This document shows, piece by piece, positions 2,734-64,000 of a stretch of DNA of 64,000 nucleotides. The notes under the pieces were generated by a model. It searched no databases. It had not been told where the DNA came from and saw only the letters and a program-made list of their open reading frames with translations. How positions within the stretch are numbered: the stretch's first letter is position 1; each line of letters opens with the position of its first letter. This DNA comes from Cyanidioschyzon merolae (lineage: Eukaryota). Made by a program: the position numbers and the translations under genes. The DNA lies in NCBI GenBank assembly GCA_000091205.1, contig AP006495.2. One strand, 5' to 3'.

Positions 2734-4695
2734 ATGCGCAAGGTGATGTCGATTCGTGTCAAACGCTGCGTCCTACGGCAGGGCGCGTGCCGCGCTGTTG
2801 GGCGGGCGATGGCGTTGCTGTGCAAAGGAATTCCTTTACGGCACAAGGGAAACGTGGATGCTGGCGCAGCGCCGTACCCTCGAGTCCGCTTCTTTGATTT
2901 CAACTCAATTTCGTTGCACCCTCGCTGTGGTGTACTAGCAGGCGATCGACCTCAGGATGCAATATACCGGATGGAATGTGGATGAGTTGCCTGTAGGATA
3001 GATTCTTTACTGAAGTGTGCATCGAGGACTGCTTTCATTAATCAGGTCAGACATACCACAGTAATCAGACTTCTACCGAAATGGCAACTCCGGAATTCCG
3101 CGAACGTCGCTATCCAGATAAAGCACATGAACGTCGGTTTGTTTTCCCAGTCGATGAGACTTGCTTCGGACGAAGCGCTCGGAGCGTATATGGGTATGTC
3201 GGAAAGGATGCCCGTTGCACGTCCGAATGAACTCGAAGAGAACGATAGCATGATATATTCTGGGTGCAGGGGATTCATTTTGCGGCCTCAGGTTCGCTGG
3301 TAGTGGAGGCCCATGCAACAGCACCAATCACTTTGTCAAATCATTGCAGACTGGTGCCTGACGTCTGGCGACGTCCCCCTATTGGACGATGTGGTATTTG
3401 ACAATTCCGTTTGCGTTCGAGCTTTTGTGAATTTTATAGATGTCGAGCTGCTTCTCATTCCACAGTAGGTTCCGTGGTTCATCCCCATCGAAGGAGCGTT
3501 TCCTAATCGCCAAACGTAATGATCGCAAAACTGGGCGAATCGCTGAAGCGTCCCCCACACGTTTTTACTCCGAGGGCGCATTTCGTGTTTCTTCCACAAG
3601 TCCTCCTCGCTCCGGGATGGTGTGTACCTAAGAGTAGCAAGAAACGTGTTCATTTTTGAAGAAATACAATACCGAAGGAATGATCTGGGCTGTCCACTGT
3701 AGAAGGTCGAGATGGACCGAGGGCAGCGCATGGCTTCGGCGACAGAAAAATACGGAGCGATGACAGAGCACAAACTGGCATCAAGGTCTCGAGTTCGAGG
3801 ACTCGTTGCATTGGTGAGTCCCACCAGACGCAATAAACGCATGAAATTCATGACCCAACGCTTCAACGCTGCCATCAATACGACGAGATGTGTGGTACCG
3901 AAAAAGAGACCCACGGAGCTGAGGTGATCCAACTGAGTGGGAGCAGCTCTTCACCGATAGAATCGGCGAAGAGCTTCAACGCAACAGTAAGCGTAAATTA
4001 CCATGCAATCCAATGGAAGGACGTTGCCAGAAGCCGGAAAAAGTCTTCGATCATTCGACGAAATAGATCCTGTTGTATGAGCCTTATCTACGGGCCAGTA
4101 CTGAGGCCGCCAAATGAATCCACTGCAGCTAGATCAGAGGACGAAGAATACCTCGTTCCGATCGAGATCGATCGTCGATACAACGGGCGCCCTGCTCCTC
4201 GAATACCCATCTACAGTCCAACTATTTCGTCCGAGGCAAGCCGCACCAACTGAAGAAGAAAACCAACGTCCCTACACTGTGCACGGATCGCAACTTTCCA
4301 GTAAAGATGTCGTTGCTGTTTCGATGGAAATGGCCGTGATAGAACTAGAGTATTTTTCCGGACCGTATCCCAGTGTTCCCAGGATCACACGAACAAGCAG
4401 TAGAGCAGCAGAGACGCCCCCAGCTGCTACCAGGATCGCTTCTGCTTTCCCGAAACTATTCAACCGTGAACTTTTCTACCATTGATTTGAACCACGCTCT
4501 GACAAAACCAGCTTTTGAAGCGGTAAGCATCCAGCTCCTTCTTTCAGTATTCCTCATCCATCTGAGTACTACGGTACACCTGACGACCCCACGAAGGAAT
4601 GCAGTCCTCCTGGCACGATTCCGGAGAGCATCCATCCTACCGGCGATTTGTCTATAATCCAGAATCCGCATGACATAAGTGATGTCAATCGCCTG

Positions 4696-5055: not shown

Positions 5056-8000
5056 ATGCCAGGCAGCACACAGCGTGGTGGTTGGCGGGAACAACGACCA
5101 GCGCTTTCTCGAGGTACGCCGGTGAACCAGCGACGCTGGTCAGCGTGGCTTCCGCGACTCTCCTCATTGGTCGATGAGCAGCCCGTCCAGGACGTGCTGG
5201 ATGAGGTCCAGCAGCTGCTACTCGAACGCAGCACCTGGGTCACCTATGAGGACGGGGCGCGAGGCGGTGCATCCGGGCGCGGTGCAAACAAGCCGCCGGC
5301 GCCTTTTTCGTCTGCTGGCTGGGAACGGCTCCAGACACTCCTCGAAGTTGAAAAGGCCCTGGTTTCGGCACTGGGCCATCACTGCGAAGACGTGCGAGAT
5401 CGCGCCGTCGTCTTGCTCAGTGTGCTGTACGATGGGCACCCGCTGCAACTCGCCGGTGATGCGCTTCCTGTAGCCGTGACTTGTGTCGGAGAACCGGTCA
5501 CAGTTTGCATTCCATTTGCGAGCGAAGCAGATCGCGAGGCCTTCCAACCACAACGTGCCGTGTTGCGTCTGTTTCGGCCCTGGCCAAACAAAAACAAGAA
5601 TGGATATACTCGTGAAGTGCTGAGCAAACAGGCAACGAATAGTCTGCAGCTCGGAGGTAGTCGACCTCCGCGTTCGCCCAGCTCAGATGGCCCGCAACAA
5701 CGAAAACCGTCGTTGGCTACAGAGACAGGCCCGAATGCGACAAGCACGTCGCCTTCACGAGAGCAGACCGCTCAAGACTGGACAAACGCGGAAGAGGAAG
5801 CGGAACAGGAGCTTCCCGTAGGCACACACGCACTCTGGGCCGCTTGTCATGGACACTGGCAAAGCTACCCCATCAGCGTGCAGGGCGAGAGCATCCTCGT
5901 TCATCTGGGCAGTTTCGAGCAGCCGGGCTTTTACGACTGGTACATCGCTCGAGCTTCGGATGGTGTCGCCTCTCCGCTGGTAATCGCTCATCCGGTTGTC
6001 TATGCCGATGTACCGGGTATGGACTTTAGACGCCTGCGCGGCCGCTTCATCGTCCAGCCGAGGGGAGCGCGAGCCCATCGCCTCTATGAGATACCTGTTG
6101 ACCAGGTTGGCGCTCGCTGGGATGCCACCACAGGGGCGCTACTCTCCAGGGGCTCCTTCGATGCGGTGCAGGAGCTTCTGCCCCGTCTGGCAGCGAGCGG
6201 TATCACCGGGATATACGTGAGCGGCTGCCTGGAACGTCGCCTCGATGAGCACGAGCCGACACCGCACACCGTTGTCGATCGAGCGATGCCTGCCACGATC
6301 CTCGGCGGGGTGCACAAGTTCCGTCGAATGTGTGCAGAGGCCCGTCGACATCAACTGGCAACCATCGTGGACTGCTTGGATCGAGTGTCGCTGGCTCGAG
6401 CACACCGCCGCTACCGACGCATCGGCTATGTGCGTATTGTGGATGCGAAACGTCAGGTGCCTGCACTACCTCATCCTGGAACAGACTGTCACGAGGTCCA
6501 ATGGGAGGATACCGCTCTCCTGAACTACCGTCGCCTTGAGAGCTGGTATTCGCTCATTGAGGATATTTCGCAGATGGCGACTGAGCACGGTGCTGGCGGC
6601 GTTCGCCTCGACAATGCGCAGTGCGTTCCCTGTGTACTCGCTCCGGACGTTACCGAACTCGCACGTATCGACAACGACGGGATTGCGCACTATGACGACG
6701 AAGAGAAGGCATTTGGCGACGTGGTGCTGGCGAACGTCGAGGGTGGCTACTGGCGCACAGACGCCGCCATCGACGGCTATCCGAATCCTCTGCTGCTGAA
6801 ACTCACCCGCGAAATGTGGCACTGGAACCCCTCGTTCCTGGTTCTTGGTGAATCTCACTTTCATCGCGAGCGCAACCTCATTGTGAGCGGCCTGATTCCC
6901 CATACGCTGCGGGTGGCAACCATACTGGCCGGTATTTCGGGCAAGTCTCTCCGCCGCGATGGTTCCGTGCGCGCTCTCGGGGAGAACAAGCATCCCACTG
7001 TGGACTTTATCGCGCGTCTCTATCGCAATGATGCACATGCGATTCCCTCGGGGGCAATCATGGTCGGGGGCACCTGCTCCGACACCTCGCCCTACCCGAG
7101 TGTGCTCTATGGACGCCGAGCCTGGACCGCAGTCGATATGCTTTGTTTCCTGCCCGATATCCCGCTCTTACTTCTGGGCGAGGAGGATGGACGCGCCTAC
7201 CGCATCAACATGGCATCCGTCTCCCGAGAAGTAGATCCCGACACCAATCTGGAGCTGGAGGTGCCCAAGTCTCCGCGCCTGGGAGGTCACGGCCTGCCGC
7301 GCGGCTCCAGCGTCGCCTCGGGCATGAGCATGCTGCACCTGCAACAAACCAGTATGGGTGACGTACGGCGCCTGAAGCGCTCCGGCTCCCGCGAGACCGG
7401 TCTAGCGCGTCTGTCGAGTACCAACCTGCTGGGACGCAACACAACGAACCGTCGCGCGGACTCGGGAAGCATGTCGGGTGCGGCTGCTGCCATGGTGCGT
7501 TCGCGCTCCACCGAGGATATGCTGAAACTTTCGATTCGCTCGGTGTCAGCGGAGGATATTCGCCAACTCGATCTGGCCGAAGAGGATATTCGACGCGAGA
7601 TTGGTCCACAAGAGGGCTACGACATTCGCCAGATTCGCGGTCACTATGAGCATCGTCTACGTCTGCGGGCATCCTACGAGGCACTTCGCGAAGGACACAT
7701 GGTAGCACTCGTGGTGCGCGAGCAGGCCAAGTACCAGGTACTGGCCTTTGCTCGCTTCACGAGACAGCAAATCGTGCTACTCTTTATCAATGTTCGCGGT
7801 GGACACGACGGGGCACCGTTTGCCGTTCCCGTTGACACCATCGTAGATCTGCGACCGCTAGCAGAGGCACTTGTTGCGGCCGCTTTTCGAAATGGATGCA
7901 CGTATTTCGGTCCTTGGGATCGCATCATTGAACTGCGGGATTGTTTCACGGGGGCTCGAGAGCCGTCACGCTATGCGTTCGAAGAGTTTCTCTTTCGCCG

Positions 8001-17699: not shown

Positions 17700-19150
17700 G
17701 CTAAGGTAGGCATAGGCCTGCAGCACCTAAGGGAGCGAAATGTTTCGCCTCTATAGAGTCTATATAGATATCTACCGACGCACAGGCGCATCCTAGTCGT
17801 TTTTGACCGGCACCTGTTATCGGTGTCAGTTGCTCTCCCAGCACACTTCGAGACCGAGAGGCTGCCGCATAGAGTTGTATCGCGTCAGCCCCTCGGGTCT
17901 CGTCTTCAACAACGCACATCGTCTGATCTGGATAGCAGCACTGAAGTCTCGGCTCACGGAAACCATGCGTTTAGTTGCCTCTGTTTGAACTCACAAGTGC
18001 CAGGCGTCCTCGAACGAGCGCCCTCTGTGTCACCACAGTCTCGTAATCATCCCGTCAGGCAAACACGTTTTCTCGTCTATCTCCAATCGACATCTTCTTC
18101 TTCTTCGTTGCTTGCTCTTCTGCGCCTGATTGTCGCCGAGAAGGAGATCTTCCACGTTCTTTCCTGGCAGCCGGCGAAACGGGGCCTCCAGGATCCGCCA
18201 CGCTCACTTCCATCACTTTATTTTGTTTTGAATATGAACCCGATGTCGAACGCGTCTGCCTTGAACCGCGAAGCATGACTTGAATACACGAGTGTGAAGG
18301 CTGAAGCACAGCCGACTTGCCGGACGATACGTTGCAATGACTTTAACGCAAATACAGCTCGGACGTCAGAGGAACCCGCTCATCATCATCGTGATCGCGT
18401 TTCTCCTCAACGGCGAGATACGCATCGCATCCCATGCCTGCCAGATTTGGAGGTGCGCGTATCGACCCCGCTATATAGAAAAAAGAACACAAACGAACAT
18501 CTAACTAGCAACGAGATAACGATTTCTTTCCACCGCTACGATCAAAGTCAAACAGAGGAAACGTTTTCCGTATTGTCGAAAGTTTACCTTCCAGACGAAA
18601 GGTCCCGCAAGCCGGACGAGTCGATCGGGCTCTCGCGCCATATTCCTCCGTAGGGGCGGGTGCTGTAATGAGACCTGAGCAACTCGTCGGCAACGCAGTT
18701 TATTCTGGGACTCGGAGCGGGTAGCCTGCGTCTGCGCGTCGCCCTGGTCGCAGTGGACTCCTAGCAGCTCGCTTCCCGCTGTCGCAGGCAGTGGATCTGT
18801 CAGCACATCTTCCATGCTTCCAGAATGCTGATGAATCTCGATTCCGTATTCACTGAATCATGCCGCAAGCGGACGCCCTCAGTAGTATCCCAAAGCGGCG
18901 CTGTCTCTGTGCTCCATCCGCACCATCTGTAGCGGTGCTATTGCGGGTGCTTACCGCGGGTACTAGATGCTCGACAGAACGTACGAAACTACAAGTACGT
19001 ACAGCAGAATGCATACGTAATGGGACTTGAAGAAAGGATCCAGCATCATGGACGTTTTGTCGATTACCAATACCCATCCCACAGTCGGGGATCCGCGGTC
19101 CATCGAGACGTACTGCCGAATCGCACCAATCAGCGCAATGATCTCCTTGA
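17700..19150 (-). mobile_element. Decayed copy (D) of the conserved roughly 1.3 kb leader of the Fanzor-like repeat, plus a remnant of the ORF N-terminus.
   Basis: Long nucleotide homology to A 38750-40070 (reverse complement) and B 59066-60190. Shared strings include GACGCCCTCAGTAGT, CTATTGCGGGTGCT, AGCCGGACGAG, GGCAGCCGGCGA and CTTGAATACAC. The short peptide MCVVEDETRGADAIQLY...VDIYIDSIEAKHF resembles the ORF1 N-terminus of copies A and B. Confidence 0.5.
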
Positions 19151-28389: not shown

Positions 28390-28650
28390 GCTGTTACCGA
28401 TGATCGACTCTAAACCGTCTCAAATTATCCCATGATCGACTAGGTATGTACCAGAGCGTCTTGACGAATACCTCTTGTCGTGTTGAGGCACTGATCAACG
28501 AGCTTTCTCGTGCCTGCTGAGCTGCAGGTGCAGCGGCACTGGATTATCCACTGGGCGTGTCGTGCGTACCGTGTGTGTCGAGTCTGGTGGCGGCAACACG
28601 TGCGCTGCGTACGTCTTGCCGCGGAAGTGACGAAATGCCAAGGTAGTGAG

Positions 28651-29176
28651 AAACGTAATCCCTGATAGCAAAATGTATATCTTCGTATTCAATACATGAA
28701 CGCCTCTGATTCCCTTTGGAGAGAAGGACTATGCGAAGGCACTGAGAAACCTAATCCCTGATAGCATCATGTATATCTTCGTATTCAATACATGAACGCC
28801 TCTGATTCCCTTTGGAGAGAAGGACTATGCGAAGGCACTGAGAAACCTAATCCCTGATAGCATCATGTATATCTTCGTATTCAATACATGAACGCCTCTG
28901 ATTCCCTTTGGAGAGAAGGACTATGCAGGCACTGAGAAACGTAATCCCTGATAGCATCATGTATATCTTCGTATTCAATACGTGAACGCCTCTGATTCCC
29001 TTTGGAGAGAAGGACTATGCGAAGGCACTGAGAAACCTAATCCCTGATAGCATCATGTATATCTTCGTATTCAATACATGAACGCCTCTGATTCCCTTTG
29101 GAGAGAAGGACTATGCAGGCACTGAGAAACGTAATCCCTGATAGCATCATGTATATCTTCGTATTCAATACATGAA
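28651..29176. repeat. Tandem minisatellite of about 5.6 units of 96 bp (93-96 bp variants).
   Basis: Direct repeats of GGCACTGAGAAACCTAATCCCTGATAGCATCATGTATATCTTCGTATTCAATACATGAACGCCTCTGATTCCCTTTGGAGAGAAGGACTATGCGAA. Unit starts are at about 28651, 28738, 28834, 28928, 29024 and 29118. Each unit contains the inverted repeat CATGTAT...ATACATG. Confidence 0.95.
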
Positions 29177-29247
29177 ACAATGCCGTCTCACACCCGAAAT
29201 CAATTCCGACCGCCTGGCTGCAGCTTGGCCTCGGACCGGGTCAGGAG

Positions 29248-38504: not shown

Positions 38505-40071
38505 AGCAGTCTCACTGTTCGGTTCGTTACAGACAATCCTTCTGTTAGGGATTAAGAAACGCTCCCCAAAATCACCCACGTTGAGAAAGAAAAAAGAAAA
38601 CTTGCCTCCAGAGGCTATGCAACGATAGCTTCTAGAGACGTTTCGAATGGTGGCATGGCCTCCGAACCGTTGTACCCCGTGGCAAGATCGAGTCTGTACA
38701 TAATTATCCAAAAGTTGAAGGCGCTCGATACGCCGGACAGCGCTGCGCGGCGCTGCTACCGGGACACGTTGCGGCTATCGCGCGATCGCGTATCGCGTGA
38801 CTGTCGATTGAATCCTTTTTGTCCAGATATATTCCTTATTTGGACAGAGCGATATGGACGCAGGTTGTTTTTTGATGGCAAAACGCTGATATGGACCATG
38901 GATGCCAGTCTGGGGGATAGATATTGCAACAAATGAAAGCGCTCAGCAATGTTCACTCTCGTTCCGAGTTCCACGACGCACATTTTCGCACGGCTATACT
39001 GGTCGCTTTGCACGTTCCCTGGTGCGCCGCATACTGGCAGTGAGCACCCGCAATAGAGCCTATGCTGCTCGTGCGGATACTGAACGGAGACAGAGCGGCT
39101 TTGCTATATCAGTGGGGGTGTCGGCTCGATGCGTGGTGCATTCGACACGGAACCAGGGTACATTATCATTCTGGGGCCTGCCAGCTGCGAATGCAGACCC
39201 ACTGCCTGTGGCAGCGCGAATTGATTCGCAGGGAGTCCTCTGCGACCAGCACGACGCCCAGAAGGAGCTTATCCGCTCCGAGTCCCAGAGTAACCCGCGT
39301 TTCGGACGAGTTGCGTAGACCTCACTACAGCACTAGGGACTGGGGGAAGCGTGAAGCACGAGCCCGGGAGACTCTTGCGGCTCGCGGGACCCTCTGCTTC
39401 TACGGTAAACTTTCGACCATACGGAAAGCTTTTTGCCCCTTTTGACGTTTATCGTAGAGAGGCAAAGACATCTTTATATCGTTGCTAGGTAGTAGTGAGT
39501 TTCAGTTCTACGTTCGATATAGTGCGGTCGGTTAGCGCTCCTCCGTATTCAGCATGCATGGGACACGACTCGCATGTCGTCGTTGAAGGGAAACACGATC
39601 CTAACTATTCGTTGACTTGCTATTCTACAGTACAAGATCTATTTGCGTGAAAGTCGTAGCAAAGTATAGCTTTCAATTCAATCGCGTGTCAAGCCTCAAC
39701 TAAGTGTATTCAAGTGATTTTTTGCGGTTTATAGCAGAAGCGTTCAACGTGCGTTGTTTATCCAAAATTAAAAAATGGGAATAGTATAGAGAAGGAGGTG
39801 GAGGATCCTGCAGGCCGAGTGTCGCCGGCTGCCAGAAAAAAACGGAAAATAATGCCGAGTCCAGAAGAAAAGGAGGAGAATAAGAAGCAAGGGAGGGAGC
39901 CCCCGTAGTCAATGGCTGCACGAAAGACGACACTGCGACGACATGGTAGTCGAAGCCTGTCTTCCCAAACATATCAAGGATCCCTACAAGCAAAAGATGC
40001 GAGAGGCCATCAGAAGCCGTATCCATTCGTACTCCAGGTAGGTTCATAAGGTTTCTGGAGGACTGAATCAT

Positions 40072-41914
40072 ATGTTGAGGGAGATATACGATGACGTTAC
40101 GGACACCAAACCGGTCGAGGTTCCGGAAGAATTTTTCGACAAGACCTTTATTCGTCACCTGATGGTTAGAACAGGAGAAACGTCGGGGGGAAATGATGGA
40201 GTGCATGCACTCCACGAAAACTACGCAGAATACCACTCCAATGGTACTCGATACAGCGTTCACCCGTGTATTTACGAATACGGGGCGAAGAAGTACCTCA
40301 CGAACCTGAAGAACCATATGACGATGAACCTCGAACGTTTCATGATACGCACCGTGTTTGCACTTTATCCGGGCCTGTCTTGCAATAGGATATGGGGCAT
40401 CATCGAAATCATCTCGAACGATCGTCAACATGAAGATGAGATCGAATTCGTCGACAAGAAGACATCACGCAGGAGAAAGAATGAGGATTCTGTAATCCGT
40501 ACGGTTATGCAAGAGCACCGTGCGGTACTGGGCTGGCGAATCCAACAGACAAGATATCAGAGTTGAAAAAAGATAAGGAAAGATACTATCGCCTCGTCCC
40601 GCGCCATGTTGTGTTTCTGGACCGAGAACTCGAACGCAAGGCAGAGGTGAAGCTGGGTGAGGAAAACAATGAAGAGTGGGAGAAACGGAATGCAGTCCTA
40701 ATGGCGAAGCGCTTCAACGTGGTTCCAATGTGCAAGATCAAGTCACATTTTATGACTATCGACTTCGGCGTCCTTTACGGCATAATGAAGGAGATCAGTC
40801 CGGAGTTCAATGTTAGTAGGGAGGAACTCTCCGGTGAAAACCGGGATACGTACAGTAAGAAGAATATCTTCTATTTCAAACGTCTCAAAGTGAGCAAACA
40901 AAAGGTATTTGCTGGGTTGATCGAAATCGATGGAGTAGTCATGTGTGTACACTATCGGCGGTTGACGAAAGATCGTCCAGTCCCGCCCTCTGCTGCGCCC
41001 TCGACGAAGCATGAAGAAAACGAACAAGCGGATCCTGCGACCGAGAAAGTGCGAGGTACCGACTTTGACGTTGGCACGGACCCCGGCAACGCAAATATCA
41101 TAAGCATCGCAGAACCCAAGCGTGCCGTGCGGAAGATGGTATTGACGGTAAATTACGTCGGAAAGGCATGCGTCTTTTGACATCCTCGAGAGCAAGATAC
41201 TATCGAGAATCGGGAATCATGAATGCGAAGAACAAATTCGACAAATAGAATTCAGGAATGAAAGAACACCTGGAAGCTTTGAGCGAGGTGACAAGCCGAG
41301 GAGCGGACTTTGAAGCTTTTCTGAAATTCGTGGAAGTTCGCGTTGCTCATTGGGATGCGCTATGGAAAGAGTACACCAAGCCCAGTTGGGCTCGTCTGCG
41401 TATGAATCTATACGGTGGGAGGCAGCGGGCGATCGCGAACTTTTTCAATCAGTTGAGCGCCTTGAAGGAGAATGAAAGTCAGAAGCTTGTTGTAGCATAC
41501 GGAGCAGGGCGCTGGAAGACCCAAAAGGGGTGTATGCCAGCTCCGACGACGAGGGTGAACAAGGAGTGCGCAAGGCGTTTCATTACGATACCCGTAGATG
41601 AGTTCCGAACATCGTATACACACCATGAACTGGGGTGTACATTTCAAAGAGTGGAGCTGGAAAAGTGTCAATGGAGCCCTGAGGAAATCGCAAAGTACGG
41701 ACTGCTGACGGAGGAGCAAAGGGAAAGGAGGGCAAAAGTTCAAGGGCTACTCGCACTGGTGAGTACAACCAGTGACGGCAAGAAACGTATGGAGTTTGTG
41801 AACCGAGATTTTAACGCCGCTCTCCATATACGGAGATGTGCGGTGCTGGAGGAAAACCCCCAGAGTAGACAAGAGGGAATTTTGATGGAGAACCTCTCAA
41901 GTCGAACTATATGA
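40072..41914 (+). pseudogene. TnpB/Fanzor-like (OMEGA-family RuvC) nuclease gene of about 614 codons, broken into three frames in this copy.
   Basis: RuvC-I-like motif [30 protein letters not shown] segment where TnpB has the RuvC-II Glu, consistent with a Fanzor1-type rearranged site. Zinc-finger-region motif VDEFRTSYTHHELGC...KC. C-terminal RuvC-III motif FVNRDFNAALHI (RDxNAAxNI). ORFs 40072-40566, 40563-41180 and 41258-41914 are in frames 1, 0 and 2. A 1-nt deletion relative to B near 40530 causes the first shift. Confidence 0.7.
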
Positions 41915-42080
41915 GAAAAAATTGGAAGCAGTAGTAGGTGGCCGGTCCAAAAAAACTGGGAGGCGTCTGCACGTCAGTTGGAGACGTTTTGTCTAGGGCG
42001 CGTTCACCGCCACTACTGTACACCGTTGGCGTCGTTCGAGTGCGAAAGGCGTTTGCAGTTGGCTTCGTCACGCATCCATA
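41915..42080 (+). ncRNA. Candidate omega-RNA / right-end scaffold region of copy A (hypothesis).
   Basis: Non-coding tail immediately after the stop, conserved in A, B and C. Shared strings include GTCTAGGGCGCG, CGCCACTACTG and GGCGTCGTTCGA. The inverted segments CAGTAGTAGGTGGCCGG / CCGCCACTACTG and CGTCT..AGACG could form stems. The position matches where TnpB and Fanzor guide RNAs are encoded. Confidence 0.3.
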
Positions 42081-42635
42081 CATATTTGCATGTACAGTAT
42101 ACGTACGCGAGCAAGGAGACAGAAATGAGCGCTGCTGTGTACTTGTATACATCCGATAACGCTTTAACGCATGCATGTATTTGCATGTAGAAGTATATGC
42201 AGGCAGGCAATGATGTAGATATGCATCCATGCTTTCAAGCATGGGCTTACATGCGATTCTTGTATATACCGCAGATCCCAGGCGAAGCGATGCCTTTCCG
42301 TGAGGTTCTCTAAGACGTCAAGCCGCGCGATCCCCGTGCATCACAGCTGTTCCTACGTGGCATGAGAATACCGTCGAATAGGGGTCTATTTTCGTTCTTC
42401 TTTCGTATCATGTGCGAATGAATAATACCTCGTCTTTCTGTGATGCTTTTGAGAAAAGAACGTGCAGCAATACTGAAACAGAAGGCACGCGCATGCCGCA
42501 CGCCAAACCGTCAACTTTTCTCAGTACCCTGGTTTCCCGATATGACTTTATGATTCGATTCACAGAGATGGAGCTCTGTGTCGAGCGTCAGCGCCAACGT
42601 TGGGCAACCGGATCACACTCGAGAATTATCACTGC

Positions 42636-44408
42636 TCACGTGATCTCGTATGCTCCCACAGGAGATAGCGTTGCCGGCGTCGCTTCTGAGGACGAACGTG
42701 TTCGGCTGGATTCCCAGCCCAGAGGTTCCACAGTTACCGGGTTGTAGAGACTCTCCGGTTTCTGCCGCGTACCTAGACGCCATCCAAGCCAAAAAATTGC
42801 CACGCATCCGAGAAAAACTAGCACGCCGCTGAGTACACCTAGGATGAACACTACACCCCATTTGCGCCGAGCGGTATCCCTGGCTATATAGTCGGGTGTG
42901 TTCGTCACCGTAAGCCAGTCGTTCTTAGACGGCCGACAAGCTTCCGCACGGATCTCGCTCGAACGTGCAGACGAGGATCGTTTTGAGACAAGCTCCATGA
43001 ATCGTCTTAGTGTACATATCGGTTCACAGCCCGGGAGCTCGAATACCTCCCAATTATACCGCACGACGACGTACCACTTGTCCAGCGCCTCCCGAGGCAT
43101 GAAATCATCGGAGCGTTGCTGCATTTGGGGCAGTTGTTGCTCTCGTTGTCGTTGTGCATTTGGTGCGGTACGTATATCGGATGTGCTTATGGCTGCGCTT
43201 CCCGCTTTAAGAATGCCATTCGGAGGCTGCTTGTGAAGCTCACGAAGCTCCACGATAATCGTGGAACCGAACGGCGGTGCTCGTTCAGGATGCATACCGA
43301 GCACTGCCAGCAGGGCTGCCAATGTCGTGTCGTGCCCAGAGAAGAGCACGAACTTCTCCGTTCGAAGGCCAGCGATTTTCGTCCGCAGCAAGTTCAGTAT
43401 ATGGAGTGCCAAGGGACCACCCGTCAGATTCGCGGCTTCCGCGCTCCGGTAAAGGTCCGCAAAGCAGAATCCATAGAGGGTTCGAACTCGTTCGCGGACC
43501 GAGTGATTCACCTCGGGAGGCAGCTCGATACCCTGCGCTGCATCGCATTCCCATACATCATAGGCAGTCGCAACATCGTCCAGCGTGGCTGGTCGACCTA
43601 GCCCCATAATATTTCTGCCGAGGTATTCCAGCCACAGCTGATTCGCGGCCTCAAGCTCCCTCCAGGCCCCTGATAGACGCGTTTGCATCTTGAGTTCCTG
43701 CCAGCGAGCGCACCCTACACCAGGCAGCATCATAATATCTTGAGACGTCTCTATGGTGTGCACAGGTACTGGCTGGTACTGCACCCTTGTATCTGATGTG
43801 TTGGTATAAAAGAGCCCCAGGAGTTGATTCGTAGCCGAAACCAGGGCCCGATCGATATCACTACTGCGCACATGCACGTCCACCACGTTGTAGCGCACCG
43901 GCAAGAAACCGTCATAAACATAGCGGAGTATCCTACCTAGTTCAAACTGCTGATGGATACCGATCGGGGTGAGCTGGCCGATCCCCTCGGGCCACTTGTG
44001 GTATGGCAACGGGTCACGTGGGTATGTCCCGAGCGGAACGCGGGCGCCGTGTCGACAAACCTCAATAATCATGATCAAAGAGGTGTTCTGGTTAGCCGCC
44101 AGCACCTCCTCGCGTACCCTGTGTGCCCAGAGCGGGGGCCAGGACTCCACACGCCGCGATGCGAGTCGTTCCAGGGGGTCGGCTCCGACAAGTCGTCCAC
44201 TCGATCGACTGCGTGTACTGTTGGCGGTGAGCACTGCTTCCAAGCTGCTCCGAACGTCCAAGTCACTCAGGGCTCGCTGTCTGCCTTTCGGGTTACTGCT
44301 ATTTGGAGACTCGTCTCCAGTGGGTAACCTCACGAGGGGCCCCGTCCTTCCGAACTCGCCAACGAGCAGCACCAACAGTACACCGAGAGCCAGTAGTCTG
44401 AGCGTCAT
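42636..44408 (-). CDS. Membrane-anchored histidine acid phosphatase (branch 2 histidine phosphatase).
   Basis: Signal peptide MTLRLLALGVLLVLLVG. RHGARVP signature (CRHGARVPLG). Catalytic FSGHDTTLAALLAVLG. C-terminal TM segment VVFILGVLSGVLVFLGCVAIFWLGW followed by a short cytoplasmic tail. Confidence 0.85.
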   Translation of the reverse strand: MTLRLLALGVLLVLLVGEFGRTGPLVRLPTGDESPNSSNPKGRQRALSDLDVRSSLEAVLTANSTRSRSSGRLVGADPLERLASRRVESWPPLWAHRVREEVLAANQNTSLIMIIEVCRHGARVPLGTYPRDPLPYHKWPEGIGQLTPIGIHQQFELGRILRYVYDGFLPVRYNVVDVHVRSSDIDRALVSATNQLLGLFYTNTSDTRVQYQPVPVHTIETSQDIMMLPGVGCARWQELKMQTRLSGAWRELEAANQLWLEYLGRNIMGLGRPATLDDVATAYDVWECDAAQGIELPPEVNHSVRERVRTLYGFCFADLYRSAEAANLTGGPLALHILNLLRTKIAGLRTEKFVLFSGHDTTLAALLAVLGMHPERAPPFGSTIIVELRELHKQPPNGILKAGSAAISTSDIRTAPNAQRQREQQLPQMQQRSDDFMPREALDKWYVVVRYNWEVFELPGCEPICTLRRFMELVSKRSSSARSSEIRAEACRPSKNDWLTVTNTPDYIARDTARRKWGVVFILGVLSGVLVFLGCVAIFWLGWRLGTRQKPESLYNPVTVEPLGWESSRTRSSSEATPATLSPVGAYEIT

Positions 44409-56132: not shown

Positions 56133-57023
56133 CTAGTTCCCAAAGGCGCCCAGCAGTTGCTCAACAGCAGGCTTGACACGTTTTTCATACCAGGACGGAT
56201 CCGGACAGAGCTCCTGGATTTTGCGCGCCATTGCTTGCCAGCCGTCTTTAACACGGCTCAAATCCAGCCCAAGTTCATGGTAGAGCTCCAGTAGTAATGC
56301 AACGTTGCGTCGGTGCAAAAAGTCAACTGGCGGTGCATTCTCCTCCTGAGCCAGCACCGCATAACTCACAATGCGAAGCTGATCGCGCATGTCGTTGGCG
56401 AGCTGTTCCTCGATGGCTTCGGTGCGGCTCAGCGTTGCCAGATTTTTTCCCTCGTAGCATTCTTTCTTCACCCTTGCAGCCGCAATGCCAGCTTCGATGA
56501 TCGCCTCCGCATTGGTCGTAATGACTGCCGCCACGTCAGCGCCCTGAAAACTCCTCCTACCACGATATGACTCAATCTCTTCGATAGGGACGAACATCAG
56601 CGCTGTATCATTTTTCCGGCAGGTGTTCGCGGCTTCTGTATGGAAGCCGTCACCACACCGAAGAAGCGACTTGTGACTGCGCAAAAACGCCCGCAGGGCC
56701 TGCGCACGCCTCGACATGTGATCCGTCTTTGGGACCGAAGTTGGAGCGGGCGCACCATTGTTCTGGGAAGCAGCACCAGCGCCGTCACGCGGGCCGGCAC
56801 CCACCGGGAACGGTGGAGTTAATGTCGAGGTGATCTGCAGCGCCCGACAAGCACGCTTTGCGTTCGCCAACGAGCATGGGGAAACCCGCCGGAGCGACCT
56901 CCCGTGCGAGGAAAGCCAACGGCTACTCCAAACGAAGCCAGTCGACGCCTTCCTAACCAACGCTACACTTGAAGCCTTTCGATGTTTCGGTGAATAATGC
57001 AAAAAAATGTTTGTAAAAGCCAT
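56133..57023 (-). CDS. Hypothetical conserved-looking protein; the start is ambiguous (ATG at 57023 or at 56717).
   Basis: Uninterrupted ORF. The C-terminal half is not low-complexity (FVPIEEIESYRGRRSF...NAEAIIEAGIAAARVKK...LLELYHELGLDLSRVKDGW). The first 25 or so codons overlap the tail of repeat copy B. Confidence 0.4.
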   Translation of the reverse strand: MAFTNIFLHYSPKHRKASSVALVRKASTGFVWSSRWLSSHGRSLRRVSPCSLANAKRACRALQITSTLTPPFPVGAGPRDGAGAASQNNGAPAPTSVPKTDHMSRRAQALRAFLRSHKSLLRCGDGFHTEAANTCRKNDTALMFVPIEEIESYRGRRSFQGADVAAVITTNAEAIIEAGIAAARVKKECYEGKNLATLSRTEAIEEQLANDMRDQLRIVSYAVLAQEENAPPVDFLHRRNVALLLELYHELGLDLSRVKDGWQAMARKIQELCPDPSWYEKRVKPAVEQLLGAFGN

Positions 57024-60000
57024 GTTCGAGCGCACGACACGCACCAACAAACGCCCCTCTAAAGTCGAACGACGCCAGCGGTATGCAGTAGTGGCGTGTG
57101 ACGCGCCCTAAACAAGACGACTCCAACTGACGTAGAGACGCCCACCAGGCGTTCTCGGCGGTCCATGTACTAATGCTTTCAATCATGTCTCATATAGTTC
57201 AACATTGGGAGGTTGTCCAATAAAGTTCGCTCTTGTCCATTATGAGGTCTTCTTTCCATCACCGCACATTTGTTTATATTAATTGCGCCATAAACATCTC
57301 GGTTCACAAACTCCATACGTTTCTTGCCATTAGAAGTTGTACTTTCTAATGCGAGCAATCCTCGAACAATCGCCCACCTTTCCATTTGCTCTTCCGTCAG
57401 CGCTCCGTACGTTTTTATATCCTCAGGGCTCCGCTGGCACTTTTCTCTTTCGGCTCTCTGAAGTGTACATCCCAACTCGTGGATTGTATACGATGTTCGG
57501 AACTTATGTACAGGTATCCTAGCGAAACGCCTTGCGCAATCCTTATATATTCTTGTCGTGGGAGCTGGTGTAGTCCCTTTTTTGGGCGCCCAGCGCCCTG
57601 CTCTGCACGCTACTACGAGCTTTTGACTTTGATCCTCTTTGAGGGCACTGAACTGATTGAAAAAGTTGACGAATCCACGCTGCTTCCCACAGCACAGATA
57701 CATTCGCGATAGAGCCCACATGGGCTTTAGATATTCTTTCCAAAGCGCCTCCCAATGAGCAACGCGAACTTCCATGAATTTCAGAAAAGCTTGAAAGTCT
57801 GCTCATCGGATCGTCAGCTCGCTCGAAGCTCTCAGGTGCTCCTTGATTTATGCATTCCATGTCTCAGTTTTCTTCCTCGCATTCTTTATACCGGATTCTC
57901 GATAATATCTAGTTCTTGAGAACCTCAATAGACGCATGTCGCTCTCACGTAAGCTGCCGTCAATGCCATCTTCCGCACGCTTGGGAGCAACGATGGTTAT
58001 GCTATTCGTATTCGCAGGGTCCGCCCCAACGACAAAGTCGTTATCCTGCACCTCCTGCGTCGCTGGATCTGCCTCTTTGATTTCTTCATGCTTCGCAGAG
58101 GGCGAAGCGAAAGGCACGATAGGACGATCCATCTTCAACCGCCAATAGTGCACACACATGGCTACACCATCGGTTTCGACCATCCCAGCGAATACCTTTT
58201 GTTTGCTCACTTTGAGACGTTTGAAATAGAAGATACTCTTCTTACCGTATGTCTCACGGGCTTCACCGGAGAACTCCTCCATTGTAGCATCGAACTCGGG
58301 ACTGATCTCTCTCATGATGCCATGAAGGGTTCTGGAGTCGATACTCACAAAATGTGACTTGATGTTGCACATTGGAACCACGTTGACGCGCCTCCCCATT
58401 AGAATAGCCTTCCGTCTCTCCCACTCTTCATTTGTCTCTACACTCAGCTTCATTTCCGCCTTGCGTTCGAGCTCTCGGTCCAGAAACACGAAATCGCGCA
58501 GAATGAGGCGATAGTATCTTTACTTGTCTTTTTTCAACTCTGATATCTTGTCTATTGGATTCGCCAACCCCAGTACCGCACGGTGCTCTTGTATAACCGC
58601 ACGGATCACAGAAGCTTCATTCGTGCTCCTGAGTGACGCCTTCTTGTCGACGAATTCGACCTCATCTTCATACTATCGATCGTTCATGGTGCCATTGATC
58701 ATCGCCCATATTCCTTTGCGAGAGACGCCCGTGTGGAGTGCAAACACGGCGCATATCATGAAACGTTCGAGGCTCTCTGTTAAATGGTTTTTCAGGTTCG
58801 TAACGTACTTCATCGTTCCGTATATGTAAATATTCGAGTCACCCTTGCATCGAGTACCCTCGAAGCAGAATTCCGCGAAGATTTCGTGAAGAGTGCGAAC
58901 CAGCTCATTTTCCCTCTGCGCTTTCCCTGTACCAAGCATCAAGTGACGAATATGTGTCTGGTCGAAGAGCTTGTCCGGAAGCTCGACCGTTTCCATGTGC
59001 GTCACGTCGCGATACGTCTGCATCACCAAATGCATCAGTCCTGTCGACGCCTTGACAATACTCATGGAGTACGAGTTGACATGTTTTTTGATAGTGTCTC
59101 GAAACTTTTTCTTATATGGATATTCTTTATACGTTTACGAAGACCGGCGTTCACCACCATGTTGTCATAAAGTAGTCTTTCTTGCATGCATCGACGTAGG
59201 GCCTCCCCCTTTTGCTTCTTCATCTCCCCCTGTCCTCTGGACTCCACACTGTTTTCGGTATTTTTTTTCCGGCAGCCGGCGATAATGGGCCTACAGAATC
59301 GTCGACTAGCTTTTTCATAACTTTCTTTTTTTAGCTTTTCTTCTCAAAACAGAACTCTCTTTGAACGCGTCTATTATGTGTTGCGAGAAAACTCTTGAAT
59401 ACACTTGTCTTAGGTTCGAAACACATATGAACTGAAAAACTGTACTTTGCTAGGGCTCGAACGGAAATCCAACTATTACAGCTAAACAACACGCTCCTGA
59501 TCACGATAGCGTTTTCCTTCAACATCGGCGGCATTCGCGTCGTGTCTCATGCCTGCCTGATTTCCCACGGGTGCTAACCGATAGCTCTATTTAGAACAAA
59601 GAAAAAAGAACAGAGACTCGCAGTCCGCGAGCAACGATATAGCGATTTCGTACCCGCTCTACAATAAACGTTGAAAGAGGAAAATCATACAGAATTTTAG
59701 AAAGCTTACTTTCCAGGCGCAAGGTCCAGCGAGCCGGACGAGTATGCAAGGCTCGTGCTCCATGCTCCCCCAGTGGCAAGCGCTTTAGTGCGACCTGACC
59801 AACTCATGCACCAAGCAGTTTATTCTTGCGCGAGGAGCGGGTATGGTGCAAGTGGTCATCGCATTGCTCGAAGATGATTCCTAGTATATTGCTTCGCGCT
59901 GCCGCAGGCTGCACGTCTGTCTCCGCAGTTTGCAGGCTCCCTGAATGATAACGAGTCCGGATTCCGTCTCAGTGGAGCCACACCTCGAGACGACGCCCTC

Positions 60001-60190
60001 AGTAGTCTCGCAAAGCCATTCTTTCGCTGTGATGAGGCTGCACCTTCGGTGTAAGCAATAGGGAAGGCTCGGCACGCTAGAGAACTACAAAACGGCCAGC
60101 ACATCTCGAACGAATTATAGGTAATGGAGTTTGAAAGTAGGCTGAAGAATATCGAGCGCTTTCATTTCTTTCAATATTCATTCCGCTGTC
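56960..60190 (-). mobile_element. Copy B of the Fanzor-like dispersed repeat (leader + ORF + tail).
   Basis: Collinear nucleotide homology with copy A across the leader (59066-60190 versus A 38750-40071), the ORF and the tail (56990-57178 versus A 41915-42080). Boundaries are approximate. Confidence 0.6.
57179..59065 (-). pseudogene. TnpB/Fanzor-like nuclease gene, copy B, interrupted by nonsense mutations.
   Basis: Paralogous to the copy-A ORFs, for example MFLDRELERKAEMKL...[16 protein letters not shown]...[18 protein letters not shown] and KRMEFVNRDVYGAININKCAV. In-frame stops include a TAG at 58675-58673 (where copy A has CAA), a TAA at the ELKKDK junction, and a TGA where copy A has GGA before ADFxAFLKF. 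Confidence 0.7.
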
Positions 60191-60396
60191 AGCGATCCAT
60201 AAAGCAAGTCAACATTTTATCATCAAATGAAACGCCAGAATCAGGTGCTCACCATTTAGGAACACGCGCCGACGCAAATATCGCCGCCGTTGGTCGGCAG
60301 GTACGGCCCGACCTCGCGGGGCAGGCTTCAACTTTGCTGAACGTTCGCTGAACCTCACGTTTCAATTTCTTTAAAGCGTCTGCTGAGGCTTGTCCA

Positions 60397-61443
60397 ATGG
60401 TTGACGAGAAAGGCGATCTCTGTTTATGGGAGCATCTGGTGGCTGGCGGCGGGGCGACACTCTCCGCCGTCAGCGTTATGCACCCGTTGGACACGATCAA
60501 AATCTACATGCAACGCGCTCAGGTGGCAACCGCAGGCGGCAGCGCTAACGTCCGGCCGACAATGCTCGGCGCTGCGCAAGAAATCTTGGCTCAAAGAGGG
60601 CCCGGAGGATTTTACGCCGGCCTAGGTGCCAATCTCAGCGGGCAAGTGCCAGCAGGCGCGATCAAGTTTGCAACTTACGAGCTGCTGAAGCAACACGCCG
60701 TGCAGAAGCGGCTCCCGGCTGCAGCACAGGGTTGGGGCGAAGTCGCCTCTGCAGCGCTGGCGTTTCTGGCCTGCTCTGTAGTTCTGGTCCCCGGTGAGGT
60801 CGTAAAGAGCCGCCTCCAGGCCGGTTTGTATCCGAGCTTCCGCGAAGCGCTTCTGCGTATCATTGAGCAGGATGGCGTTTCTGGACTCTACAGGGGCTAC
60901 TGGGCCACAGTTACGCGTGACGTCCCGTATACGATGCTCGAGTTTGGGCTATACGAGCAGTTTAAACGAGCGTGCATGTGGTCTGTTAAGCGCGATCGAC
61001 TACATTCCTCAGAGGAATGGACCATGGGTGGCCTCGCTGGCGGCGTAACCGGTTGGTGTACCACCCCGCTCGATGTCATTAAGACGAAACTCATGACGTG
61101 TGCACGCTCGCAATACCGCGGCTACTGGGACGCCGCTCGTGACGTTTGGCATCGAGAAGGGCTGAGCGGCTTCTTCACCGGGGGACTCGCCCGCGTGCTG
61201 TGGTTGGTCCCGTTCACAGCGGTGTTCTTCGGCAGCCATGAGATCATCAAGCGATTTTTACGAAGTCGTAAGCGGCAATATTCTACGTTGCGAAGCACCA
61301 GAATCCCTCGGATGGATCCGGAGGCGTCTGCGTCCTCTAACTGCACCTGTCGATACAAGTCCATCAAGTGGTTCGGATCGAGTACTCTTATCTGTGACGT
61401 CCGGATCAAGCCTGCGTATCGCTCGCCTCGACATCCGTTCTAG
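60397..61443 (+). CDS. Mitochondrial carrier family protein, S-adenosylmethionine carrier-like (SLC25A26/Pet8).
   Basis: Three carrier repeats with HPLDTIKIYMQ, PGEVVKSRLQ and TTPLDVIKTKLM, matching the SAMC signatures FPLDTIKTRLQ, PTEVVKQRAQ and TTPLDVAKTRI. ATG at 60397. Confidence 0.85.
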   Translation: MVDEKGDLCLWEHLVAGGGATLSAVSVMHPLDTIKIYMQRAQVATAGGSANVRPTMLGAAQEILAQRGPGGFYAGLGANLSGQVPAGAIKFATYELLKQHAVQKRLPAAAQGWGEVASAALAFLACSVVLVPGEVVKSRLQAGLYPSFREALLRIIEQDGVSGLYRGYWATVTRDVPYTMLEFGLYEQFKRACMWSVKRDRLHSSEEWTMGGLAGGVTGWCTTPLDVIKTKLMTCARSQYRGYWDAARDVWHREGLSGFFTGGLARVLWLVPFTAVFFGSHEIIKRFLRSRKRQYSTLRSTRIPRMDPEASASSNCTCRYKSIKWFGSSTLICDVRIKPAYRSPRHPF

Positions 61444-61667: not shown

Positions 61668-63650
61668 TCAGCTATCCGCTAAGTTCGTATTCGCGTCTAG
61701 GGGCCGCCAGCCAAGGTCTTGCAAGGCCGTCAAAGAAGCCGATACGCTAGAGCTCCGCCAGCGCGGCGACTTCCAGATCGAGCCGCCCCGAGTCTCCTCC
61801 GTCCAGAGCGGAGCACCGGTATCCCCAACGTGATAGCTGTTCTCGATTCGTACGTTCGTTACACCGATCTGGGCAAACGCTTTCGTCAGCTGCGCGAAGG
61901 GATCCTCGGTGACGCTCCAGTGCGGATCCGCAATGGATACCGAGCGCCCTGACGACACCGAATGTGAGATCGGTGAGTTATCGGGCAAGCATGGGTTCCC
62001 CGTCGCTGGTTTCCTTCGTTCGCCAACAGCACCGAGAGAGACAGAACAAGAGCGCCTAATCGCGCCGCTTGCCATTTGAATTGCCGGGTCCCAGGAGATG
62101 AACGCCTGCTGTGTCAACGGTTCGACCTCTGGGTGTAGCGCTGTACGATTACCTGTAGCGTCACGTTCTGACAAAGAAATACGCTCGTATTCGTCAAAAG
62201 AACGCCATGCGTTGACCATAGCCCCTGATGCTTGAGGCGGTGCCCCTTCGGCTGCATCACCCACAAGCCTTGTTGAGCGTTCTGAGGCCGCGCGCGTCCC
62301 CAGGCCGGGCTCCGCATGCCACGACAAGGGCGAACTGCTTCCCCAGATGCATCCAAGCTTAAACAGATCGTTCTCTCTTGCTGCACTAATCTTGGGAGAG
62401 GCGAACTCGTCAAAGACGAAGTCGTCCTCATTTGGACCCGCCTCGGCACCCGAGATACTCCCTGCGTCCTGCCTCGCATCGATATCAGAGAGCGGCTGCA
62501 GCGTCGCGTTGGAGCAGGGCTTCTTCGTCTGCGTACAGGTCGCGGATCGAAACGCATGCAACGGTGGTGGAGGCCCGTACCTACTCTGGAGAAAAGCCTC
62601 CCGGGATATGGCATCTGTGTTGGAGGCAAACTCATGTCGGTATAAACACGCGGGATCCACGCAGCGTTTCTGGGTCGGTGGCTGCGGCGGTTTTGCGCCG
62701 TTGGATGCCCGCTTTCGAGATATGACCTTTGCGCCGGCGAATGCAACCGCTACCGTATCGCTTGCATCGAGTGGCCTTATTGACGGGTTCCGTCCAGATG
62801 TCCATTGTGCAGACTCAATCTGGCTCTGTTTCCATTCAACGAATGTTTTCAGGTATTGCTCACAGGCCTGGACAAATGCCTCACAATAGCGCACCGTGCC
62901 ATAGGAGACGTGCACTTCATGGCCTTGCCAGCGCGCCCCGTCGTAAAGCTGTATTGCGCGGGTGGCTGCCGCCTCATCTGCATACTCCACATAGACGCCA
63001 GTTCCCTGGACAAAGAGAACTCGTTGGATTCTCCCCGTCTTTCCGAACATGTCCGAGCGCCGAATTGTGTGCTCGGACCAGAGAGATTGGTGCAATCCAC
63101 GAATGCAGATCAAGTTCCGCTGCACGATAAAGGTCTGACGCATTGTTCGTATCCGCTTGGCGAGCTCGTACTCCCGCTGCTCCTGACGTTCCCTCTCTAG
63201 CTGTTCTTGGCGAAGCTGTCGCTCCTTTTTGCGCCTGTTTATTTCACGTAGTCGTTCCTTCTCTGCAAGACGTTCATCACTAAGCTCCTCGCGGAGTTGA
63301 AAGCGGCTCTCGTCGTACGGCGTCCGGCACGCGGGGCACCGGGGGACCTGGCCCTCCTCGCACGCTGTGCGAAGGCGACTCAGGCACCACAGGCACACTT
63401 GATACCCGCACGCGCAAGGAAAGAATGCTTTCTCTGCGGCATCCAGTTCCTCAAGGCAGAGCGGACACTCGCTGCTCTCTTCCGAAGGTTCGCAAGGTGC
63501 CTCATCGGCTGACTTTCCAGAAGCGTGACGGTGCGTAGCCTGGCGCCGCGTCCGTCCGTTTCTTGCCCGCCCGCCTGTCGGCTGCCTAACGCGTTTCAAA
63601 GAAAAAGAACTGTCAGAGGTATCCACAAGTTTGGCACCGCTGAACGCCAT
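61668..63650 (-). CDS. NOT4: CCR4-NOT complex subunit 4 (NOT4/Mot2): RING E3 ligase with an RRM and a C3H zinc finger.
   Basis: RING: CPLCLEELDAAEKAFFPCACGYQVCLWCLSRLR...CPACRTPYDE. RRM: VYVEYADEAAATRAIQLYDGARWQGHEVHVSYGTVRYCEAF. C3H: CVDPACLYRHE. ATG at 63650-63648. Confidence 0.9.
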   Translation of the reverse strand: MAFSGAKLVDTSDSSFSLKRVRQPTGGRARNGRTRRQATHRHASGKSADEAPCEPSEESSECPLCLEELDAAEKAFFPCACGYQVCLWCLSRLRTACEEGQVPRCPACRTPYDESRFQLREELSDERLAEKERLREINRRKKERQLRQEQLERERQEQREYELAKRIRTMRQTFIVQRNLICIRGLHQSLWSEHTIRRSDMFGKTGRIQRVLFVQGTGVYVEYADEAAATRAIQLYDGARWQGHEVHVSYGTVRYCEAFVQACEQYLKTFVEWKQSQIESAQWTSGRNPSIRPLDASDTVAVAFAGAKVISRKRASNGAKPPQPPTQKRCVDPACLYRHEFASNTDAISREAFLQSRYGPPPPLHAFRSATCTQTKKPCSNATLQPLSDIDARQDAGSISGAEAGPNEDDFVFDEFASPKISAARENDLFKLGCIWGSSSPLSWHAEPGLGTRAASERSTRLVGDAAEGAPPQASGAMVNAWRSFDEYERISLSERDATGNRTALHPEVEPLTQQAFISWDPAIQMASGAIRRSCSVSLGAVGERRKPATGNPCLPDNSPISHSVSSGRSVSIADPHWSVTEDPFAQLTKAFAQIGVTNVRIENSYHVGDTGAPLWTEETRGGSIWKSPRWRSSSVSASLTALQDLGWRPLDANTNLADS

Positions 63651-64000
63651 TCAAAAGTCGAACGATGCCGAAGGTGTACAGTAGTGGCGGCAAACGCGCC
63701 CTAGACAAGACGTCCTCAGGCGACGTGCAGACGCATCTGTCTTTTTCGACCGGCCACCTACTACTGGTTCCAACTTTGTCTCATACAGTTCCACTTTGAG
63801 TGATTGTCAAGCAAAGTCCACTCTTGGCCACTCTGGAGGTCTTTTCTCCAGCACCGCACATTTCCTTGTATTGATTGCGGCATTAAAGTCACGATTCACG
63901 AAATCAATCCCTTTCTTGCCACTATTAGTTGTACTTAATAATGCAAGTAGCCCACGAACTTTTGCCCTCCTTTCCATTTGCTCATCCGTCAGCGGTCCGT
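63651..64000 (-). mobile_element. Copy C of the Fanzor-like repeat. Only the tail and the last 64 or so codons of the ORF are in the window; it runs off the right edge.
   Basis: The tail 63651-63806 is nearly identical to the copy-A tail (CCAGTAGTAGGTGGCCGGTC...GTCTAGGGCGCG...CCGCCACTACTGTACACC...GGC(A/G)TCGTTCGA). The C-terminal coding fragment 63807-64000 on the - strand reads LSTTNSGKKGIDFVNRDFNAAINTRKCAVLEKRPPEWPRVDFA*, with a perfect RDxNAAxN RuvC-III motif. Confidence 0.6.

Follow-up and report, generated by a model that had tools for sequence, protein, structure and literature searches.

In bacterial IS200/IS605 elements that encode TnpB, such as ISDra2, the sequence for the omega-RNA (reRNA) scaffold coincides in part with the 3' end of the nuclease gene and with the right end of the element, and the flanking DNA serves as the guide. 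The hairpin at the right end of these elements is also a DNA signal for transposition. To our knowledge, every Fanzor1 and TnpB system tested so far uses an RNA encoded at this right-end position. In the characterised Fanzor1 and TnpB systems the omega-RNA is always encoded at the right end; those known for Fz1 measure 75-150 nt and contain a 7-bp SL1 as well as a variable SL2 (PMC10432273, PMC11423790). The Fanzor1 element CMe-1A of Cyanidioschyzon merolae is ~3 kb long and occurs in ~150 copies, which are ~80% identical to the consensus (Bao & Jurka 2013, Mob DNA 4:12, PMC3627910). It has no terminal inverted repeats (TIRs), and its TSDs were left undetermined; its sole ORF encodes a TnpB-like Fanzor1 protein, and its 5' part is common to TE-N2_CMe, a repeat of ~70 copies that has only this 5' end in common with CMe-1A (PMC3627910). 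The tail of CMe-1A is thus not needed for the spread of TE-N2_CMe. The text of Bao and Jurka (2013) gives no right-end RNA, no hairpins and no exact ends. The element family, catalogued since 2013, and the principle of the right-end omega-RNA are already known; new here are a specific right-end RNA proposal for the CMe-1A family and the corrected 3' end of its nuclease gene.

The window, which is the whole 64,000-nt stretch of DNA analysed, has ~55% G+C and long ORFs without introns. A mitochondrial carrier gene at 60397-61443 matched BAM81150.1 of C. merolae 10D exactly, and the neighbouring CCR4-NOT-like protein fell into the same 90% cluster as BAM81151.1, which identifies the window as nuclear DNA of C. 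merolae 10D; for the phosphatase ORF at 42636-44408 the database look-up gave no exact record. Copies A to D of the element (Table 1) were delimited by repeat finding and alignments, and the element copies are 74-82% identical to each other. Copy A (~3.2 kb) begins with ~1 kb of non-coding 5' sequence, which is followed by a decayed ORF and a right-end module. TIRs were looked for in the element and none were found. The host, the length of ~3 kb, the similarity of ~80% between copies, the lack of TIRs and of recognisable TSDs, the 5' part common to a second repeat and the sole ORF, a TnpB-like Fanzor1, are all as in CMe-1A. Copies A, B and C match the CMe-1A family as it is described in print.

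Table 1. Position of the element copies and of their mapped features in the window.
Feature	Position	Strand	Remarks
Copy D, remnant with internal deletion	17774..19100	-	no A-type tail
Copy A, Fanzor1 element (CMe-1A-type)	38867..42058	+	left end from three-way alignments, right end from 61 copies
Fanzor1 ORF remnant of A	39943..41996	+	ancestrally ~680 aa; true stop TAG 41994-41996
First half of the reported tail	41915..41996	+	ancestrally coding, as read from the aligned copies, for ...KVELYEKKLEAVVGGRSKKTGRRLHVSWRRFV*; out of frame in A
Hairpin H3, directly 3' of the stop codon	41997..42011	+	GGCG(S)...(S)CGCC; 4 bp in A, 6-7 bp elsewhere
Conserved block ACTACTGTACAC (42012-42023) and short variable linker	42012..42029	+	predicted unpaired; holds the 3' arm of the initially proposed long-range stem
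Terminal hairpin H4	42030..42051	+	A: CGTC-G-TTCG-AGTG-CGAA-A-GGCG; other copies 10-bp stem, two registers
Last element bases, TT(T)G, and boundary	42052..42058	+	unrelated flank beyond
Copy B, decayed full-length element	57048..60230	-	
Copy B, ancestral stop	57108..57110		CTA on the + strand
Copy B, non-coding tail	57048..57107		
Copy C, cut by the window end	63642..64000	-	
Copy C, ancestral stop	63701..63703		GGA>TGA stop upstream
Copy C, non-coding tail	63642..63700		

A strain contig (L090), 98% identical to the window, also carries copies B and C and shows the remainder of copy C. Near position 5627 of this contig there is a ~75-nt length difference to window positions 58021-58096, within copy B, and the BLAST segments overlap there in window coordinates. 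No empty insertion site was found: no metagenome locus was orthologous to the window flanks, and L090 was occupied by B and C. Copy D has a ~950-nt 5' region in common with A and B; beyond it, from the start of the A/B ORF on, it resembles the 3' end of a divergent Fanzor subfamily (L052, L013), an arrangement that recalls the relationship described for TE-N2_CMe in 2013. A second rearranged repeat, at 3070-4654, is made up of pieces of the divergent Fanzor subfamily that occurs in L027, L030, L043, L048, L052 and L076, namely a 5' region (3070-3621), the 3' part of the ORF (3680-3947) and an inverted 5' piece (3956-4654). Elsewhere in the window, between two long ORFs, a tandem array with a period of ~96 nt occupies 28545-29212; its units alternate and are 97-99% identical at a spacing of 192 nt.

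The ORF of copy A is interrupted by in-frame stops at 40038 and 41246 and by several frameshifts. Stops and frameshifts are present in all of copies A, B and C, and all three are pseudogenes; among 80 metagenome loci none (0/80) had a fully intact ORF. The ~680-aa protein of copy A was obtained by stitching reading frames. The RuvC residues D (GTDPG), E (DEFRTS) and D (NRDFNAA) are kept in copy A and in the consensus, and in the stitched protein only two Cys residues remain between DEFRTS and NRD. An exhaustive HMMER search yielded 2,529 relatives. In the PDB, neither the single sequence nor a 7-sequence profile gave a match. A 72-member family profile matched 9cf0 (PpFz1, Parasitella; E = 2.7e-23), 8gkh (SpuFz1, Spizellomyces; E = 1.7e-14) and 9cer (GtFz1, Guillardia; E = 2e-11). 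The DPG, DEFRTS and NRDxNAA motifs were aligned with those of PpFz1 and SpuFz1 and are invariant or nearly so in the 72 relatives. By these profile matches the protein is assigned to Fanzor1, a family of TnpB-type nucleases. Pfam searches with the ORF pieces and with the reconstructed copy-A protein returned nothing relevant, and the precomputed annotation of the homologs contained only a weak DUF8286. As to a zinc-ribbon (TNB) domain, the Pfam family Cas12f1-like_TNB matched 17 of the 72 relatives; it matched neither the reconstructed copy-A protein nor P0052, an intact homolog and the only member of the closer group reported individually in this comparison. An AlphaFold2 model of P0052, built with 30 sequences, had a pLDDT of 42.7 and was too poor for use.

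The metagenome homologs P0001, P0007 and P0010 contain an acidic unit of ~25 aa (...TKHEE-K-EA-PATQ-VQDNDLVVDA...) in one to four tandem repeats just upstream of the RuvC-I DPG; the variable repeat number shows that the nuclease tolerates an insert of variable length there. The most distant full-length homolog, P0063, is 29% identical, and in its contig (L083, 412-1599) a DDE_3 (Tc1/IS630-type) transposase ORF precedes and slightly overlaps it.

Downstream of the TGA of copy A at 41912, the initial annotation had described a conserved non-coding tail, 41915-42080, as a candidate omega-RNA. The 80 related loci, which came from hot-spring metagenomes, provided 61 non-identical 3' ends. A 60-copy consensus had a single open frame that continued past the TGA of copy A and ended, as ...NFVGQPLKVELYEKKLEAVVGGRSKKTGRRLHVSWRRLV*, at the TAG at 41994-41996; in a longer form the C-terminal reading is ...NRDFNAAINIRRCAVLEKRPPELTRENFVGQPLKVELYEKKLEAVVGGRSKKTGRRLHVSWRRLV*, and the TAG falls inside GTCTAGGGCGCG. 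The TGA at 41912 results from two 1-nt deletions in copy A, near 41857 and 41899. The same frame is read through in the predicted proteins P0007 and P0010 and in the copies L074, L066 and L062, and a subfamily that is only ~55% identical in protein retains QPLRVEVYNEKLKTITDGRSNKAGKPLHV. An excess of variation at third codon positions was present in the extension (p = 0.036), was stronger in the upstream ORF and was absent after the stop; codon periodicity was gone in the last 30 nt of the ORF. The consensus frame, the read-through copies, the deletions in A, the third-position excess and the conservation in the subfamily together show that 41915-41996 encoded the C-terminus of the nuclease. 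The tail had thus been wrongly called non-coding over this first half, which contains the 5' arm of the proposed long-range stem (41929-41945) and the CGTCT/AGACG hairpin (41962-41988), and the truly non-coding tail is ~41997-42055.

The shared block itself is real. Downstream of the TGA of copy A one block is common to A (+), B (-) and C (-), and the motifs quoted for it were found with 0-1 mismatch (GTCTAGGGCGCG at A 41991-42002, CGCCACTACTGTACACCG at 42008-42025 and GGCGTCGTTCGA at 42028-42039). In addition to its coding left half, its right part had to be given up. Column identity in the 61 non-identical copies was 0.8-0.9 through the end of the ORF and 0.7-0.9 in the tail, and it dropped to ~0.4 at A ~42053-42060, a few nucleotides after GGCGTT(T)G. 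Information content was 1.2 bits at +1/+2 after GGCG and less than 0.3 bits from +6 on, and variability was 0.22 inside the right end versus 0.5-0.57 beyond the boundary. The alignment places the right end of the element at A ~42053-42058, so 42059-42080 is already unrelated flank; the coordinates had been drawn too far in copy B as well, which ends at ~57048 and not at 56990. Conservation collapsed within a few nucleotides of the right end and did not continue uniformly far beyond the block. The sequence beyond the block differs between copies, as had been predicted for a guide segment, but this is expected of a guide and of an ordinary insertion site alike and does not separate the two, since it is seen at every transposon end. 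Among the right flanks of 45 copies, the first ~10 nt were weakly G/T-rich (TTGTTGGTG-like, e.g. B 57036-57047) in many independent copies; this could be a target-site preference, or the element could end a few bases beyond the sharp drop.

The level of conservation in the tail was no higher than in the ORF. Copies A and B were 78% identical in the tail and 74-82% in the ORF, and copies A and C 82-88% in the tail and 81% in the ORF, which contradicts the initial view of a tail conserved in spite of ORF decay. Post-stop variability was 0.218 compared to 0.171 at third codon positions (60 copies, Mann-Whitney p = 0.15). As the tail is about as variable as third codon positions, its sequence gives little indication of purifying selection, and any transposon end would be expected to be conserved to this degree, no more than the ORF or neutral third positions. 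Since A, B and C are pseudogenes, they are similar through shared ancestry rather than through a function that they have today. These identities, together with the pseudogene state of all three copies, are what would be seen if the tail were a neutral relic, with a similarity due to shared ancestry, hairpins that are incidental to the founder sequence or belong to the 3' UTR of the nuclease mRNA, and no guide function. The variation was nevertheless patterned: stems and the ACTACTGTACAC block had values of up to 0.15, and loops and linker of 0.3-0.6.

The initial model was a ~165-nt non-coding omega-RNA closed by a long-range stem between CAGTAGTAGGTGGCCGG (41929-41945) and CCGCCACTACTG (42007-42018). 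Its arms are indeed complementary over nine positions (CAGTAGTAG, 41929-41937, and CCACTACTG, 42010-42018, with one A.C mismatch in A), 82.7% of the cells paired in 59 copies, the stem was part of the MFE fold both of A and of the consensus, each folded as a single sequence, and isolated compensatory cells occurred in L062, L020 and L067. As a structural anchor, however, it failed the covariation test, in which percent paired and covariation were matched by 112/500 and 105/500 shuffles, respectively. Position 52/129 was an A.C mismatch in 38 of the 59 copies, and when the stem was slid by +/-3 nucleotides 65-70% of the cells still paired, owing to a GTAGTAG repeat. RNAalifold did not recover the stem, and the solo copies of the tail module described below begin downstream of its 5' arm. 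This arm encodes E-A-V-V-G-G, so its conservation can be ascribed to coding. A long-range stem of this kind is therefore very unlikely.

Signs of structural constraint were confined to H3 and the terminal hairpin. The stem of H3 is more than 90% conserved and its loop is variable. None of 500 shuffles reached its values for percent paired, double changes or covariation score (0/500 on all three measures), and a compensated variant, AAGCGTG-TTT-CACGCTT, occurred in L020 and L067; in controls slid by -1 and -3, however, covariation was as high as in the true register. Its mean z per copy was -1.67. In the comparison with shuffles H3 was positive, and the long-range stem remained at the level of the shuffles.

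The ACTACTGTACAC block that follows H3 had a variability of 0.00-0.15 per column, rising to 0.24-0.55 in the linker, and the linker segment showed no local fold (z = +0.47). The terminal hairpin H4 was the most stable local segment, with a mean z of -2.28 and 54% of the copies below -2, compared to a mean z of -0.7 for control segments from the ORF. It exists in two forms, CGTCGTTCGA-CTT-TCGAACGGCG and AACGTTTTTC-TTTY-GAAAGRCGTT, and for this reason covariation in one fixed register was not significant. A compensated TTCTA/TAGAA variant was also found, and a few copies had unrelated hairpins at the same place. The local CGTCT...AGACG hairpin (H2) pointed out initially is present at 41964-41968 / 41982-41986, but it lies inside the coding sequence and was borderline against shuffles (15/500, 38/500 and 37/500).

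Overall, covariation in the tail was weak. With all local hairpins pooled, shuffles reached the observed values in 6/500, 4/500 and 9/500 cases, a level for which the tool warns that relatedness alone can produce it. RNAalifold recovered only 3 bp, the core of H3, from the 61 tails; with 21 'type I' tails the terminal hairpin was added to H3, and the covariation term was ~0. The 174-nt region of copy A folded no better than its shuffles (z = -0.95), and Rfam gave no hits in the whole window at the gathering threshold and only chance-level matches in 41800-42150 at E <= 10. The poor overall fold and the RNAalifold term of ~0 fit a neutral relic. Stems that are conserved while their loops vary, the H3 result of 0/500, a terminal hairpin kept in two 10-bp versions and a compensated variant, and the strong prior from the tested Fanzor1 and TnpB systems speak against it, and we consider a neutral origin of the module to be unlikely.

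Two sets of sequences were discarded as a basis for deeper comparison. The divergent subfamily has another tail after CTGCACGTCAGT (L027, copy D) and, with L027, L030, L052 and copy D, offered too few independent copies. P0052 and P0063 (L082, L083), which are distant homologs, contribute one tail sequence each, with no similarity on which an alignment could be built.

Hairpins at transposon ends can equally be explained as DNA signals. The 3' hairpins of Helitrons and the end hairpins of IS200/IS605 elements are recognised as DNA. The right-end hairpins of the present element, together with a hairpin at its left end, could likewise be cis-acting signals, possibly single-stranded, for the transposition machinery, and no guide RNA would be needed. 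The terminal hairpin lies 4-7 nt from the boundary and was preserved through changes of register and sequence. The left-end hairpin, at 38867-38884 in A and 60215-60232 in B (-), has the stem GTTTT...AAAAC in A and CATTT...AAATG in B, i.e. two compensatory differences, and GTTT...AAAC in other copies.

A solo copy of the last ~100 nt of the element, equivalent to A 41960-42063, was found in L036 (2786-2894), L038, L073 (1234-1334) and L080 (923-~1010). It adjoins a protochlorophyllide-reductase-like (POR-like) gene, and 16 nt downstream of it a full Fanzor element begins with its left end. This arrangement is shared by ~80%-identical lineages, and a tandem insertion or a remnant could account for it. 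A 'ghost' family of short elements was considered and rejected, as the solo tails of L036, L073 and L080 represent one orthologous locus. The extent of the solo module and the loss of codon periodicity at the end of the ORF suggest that the right-end module may start at the CGTCT/AGACG hairpin.

The position of the solo tail next to a left end (L036, L073 and L080) and the lack of TIRs, which was computed here and is also reported in PMC3627910, would suit such DNA signals. Against this stand a 3' end that is not the CTRR of Helitrons and the fact that the C. merolae element encodes no transposase. We judge the reading of the module as a DNA end signal to be rather unlikely. As the right end of IS200/IS605 elements serves both roles, this reading is also compatible with an RNA. 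We know of no transposase for the CMe-1A family. Hairpins at both ends, no TIRs or TSDs, no transposase and a solo module near a left end are the features behind a further reading, in which CMe-1A would move in the eukaryotic nucleus by a hairpin-dependent, IS200/IS605-like 'peel-and-paste' or circle-junction transposition, its right end doubling as the omega-RNA scaffold. This is highly improbable; if true, a eukaryotic element would have kept the whole logic of bacterial TnpB elements while lacking a TnpA that can be recognised.

The proposal of an omega-RNA in this place holds with respect to the TnpB-type ORF and to a conserved block that reaches the right end; it had to be changed with respect to the coding half of the tail and the long-range stem. 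The module extends from the 3' end of the nuclease gene (stop at 41994-41996) to the right end of the transposon (~42053-42058). Because position, size and two-hairpin layout are the same as in Fz1 systems, an ancestral omega-RNA scaffold is the best explanation, and by this analogy the right-end module is, on balance, probably the scaffold of a dead Fanzor1 family with the features of CMe-1A. As A, B and C are pseudogenes, they are at best relics of an omega-RNA gene.

In its ancestral, active form the element would have had a nuclease gene that extended to the TAG at 41994-41996, with a right-end segment of ~60 nt behind it, in the order hairpin, single-stranded ACTACTGTACAC block, variable linker, 10-bp terminal hairpin and TTTG. 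The omega-RNA scaffold would have been a transcript of this segment, perhaps extended upstream by the ~35 nt at the end of the ORF, where the CGTCT/AGACG hairpin lies. Read-through into the flanking DNA would have added a guide of 15-20 nt, as in SpuFz1. That the RNA was made, where it started, that the nuclease bound it and that the flank acted as the guide is inferred solely by analogy.

The closest system with a characterised RNA is SpuFz1 (Saito et al. 2023, PMC10432273; Xu et al. 2024, PMC11423790), which has a homologous nuclease (8gkh, E = 1.7e-14) and an omega-RNA with the same layout of two stem-loops followed by variable sequence. In SpuFz1 elements inverted repeats are present and the TAM is CATA, and the RNA is known from sequencing and from a structure of the complex, whereas CMe-1A has no inverted repeats and its RNA is a prediction from sequence; the SpuFz1 RNA and the right end of CMe-1A have no sequence similarity. 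About five independent left ends were alignable for a TAM, with a fuzzy boundary. The position proposed for the scaffold, where the nuclease gene ends and up to the right end, the flank as its would-be guide and the right-end hairpin also have counterparts in IS200/IS605 elements with TnpB (e.g. ISDra2). Those elements, however, are bacterial and have the Y1 transposase TnpA and a defined left-end TAM.

The finding opens no new question, as right-end omega-RNAs of Fanzor systems are established, the family has been known since 2013 and the copies in the window are dead. If the proposal is correct, a scaffold of ~60-100 nt (41997-42055, or from 41960) with a guide of 15-20 nt would provide a concrete guide-RNA design, open to testing, for the Fanzor1 of an alga that is thermoacidophilic and genetically tractable, and a Fanzor1 family without TIRs would join the few for which an RNA has been proposed.
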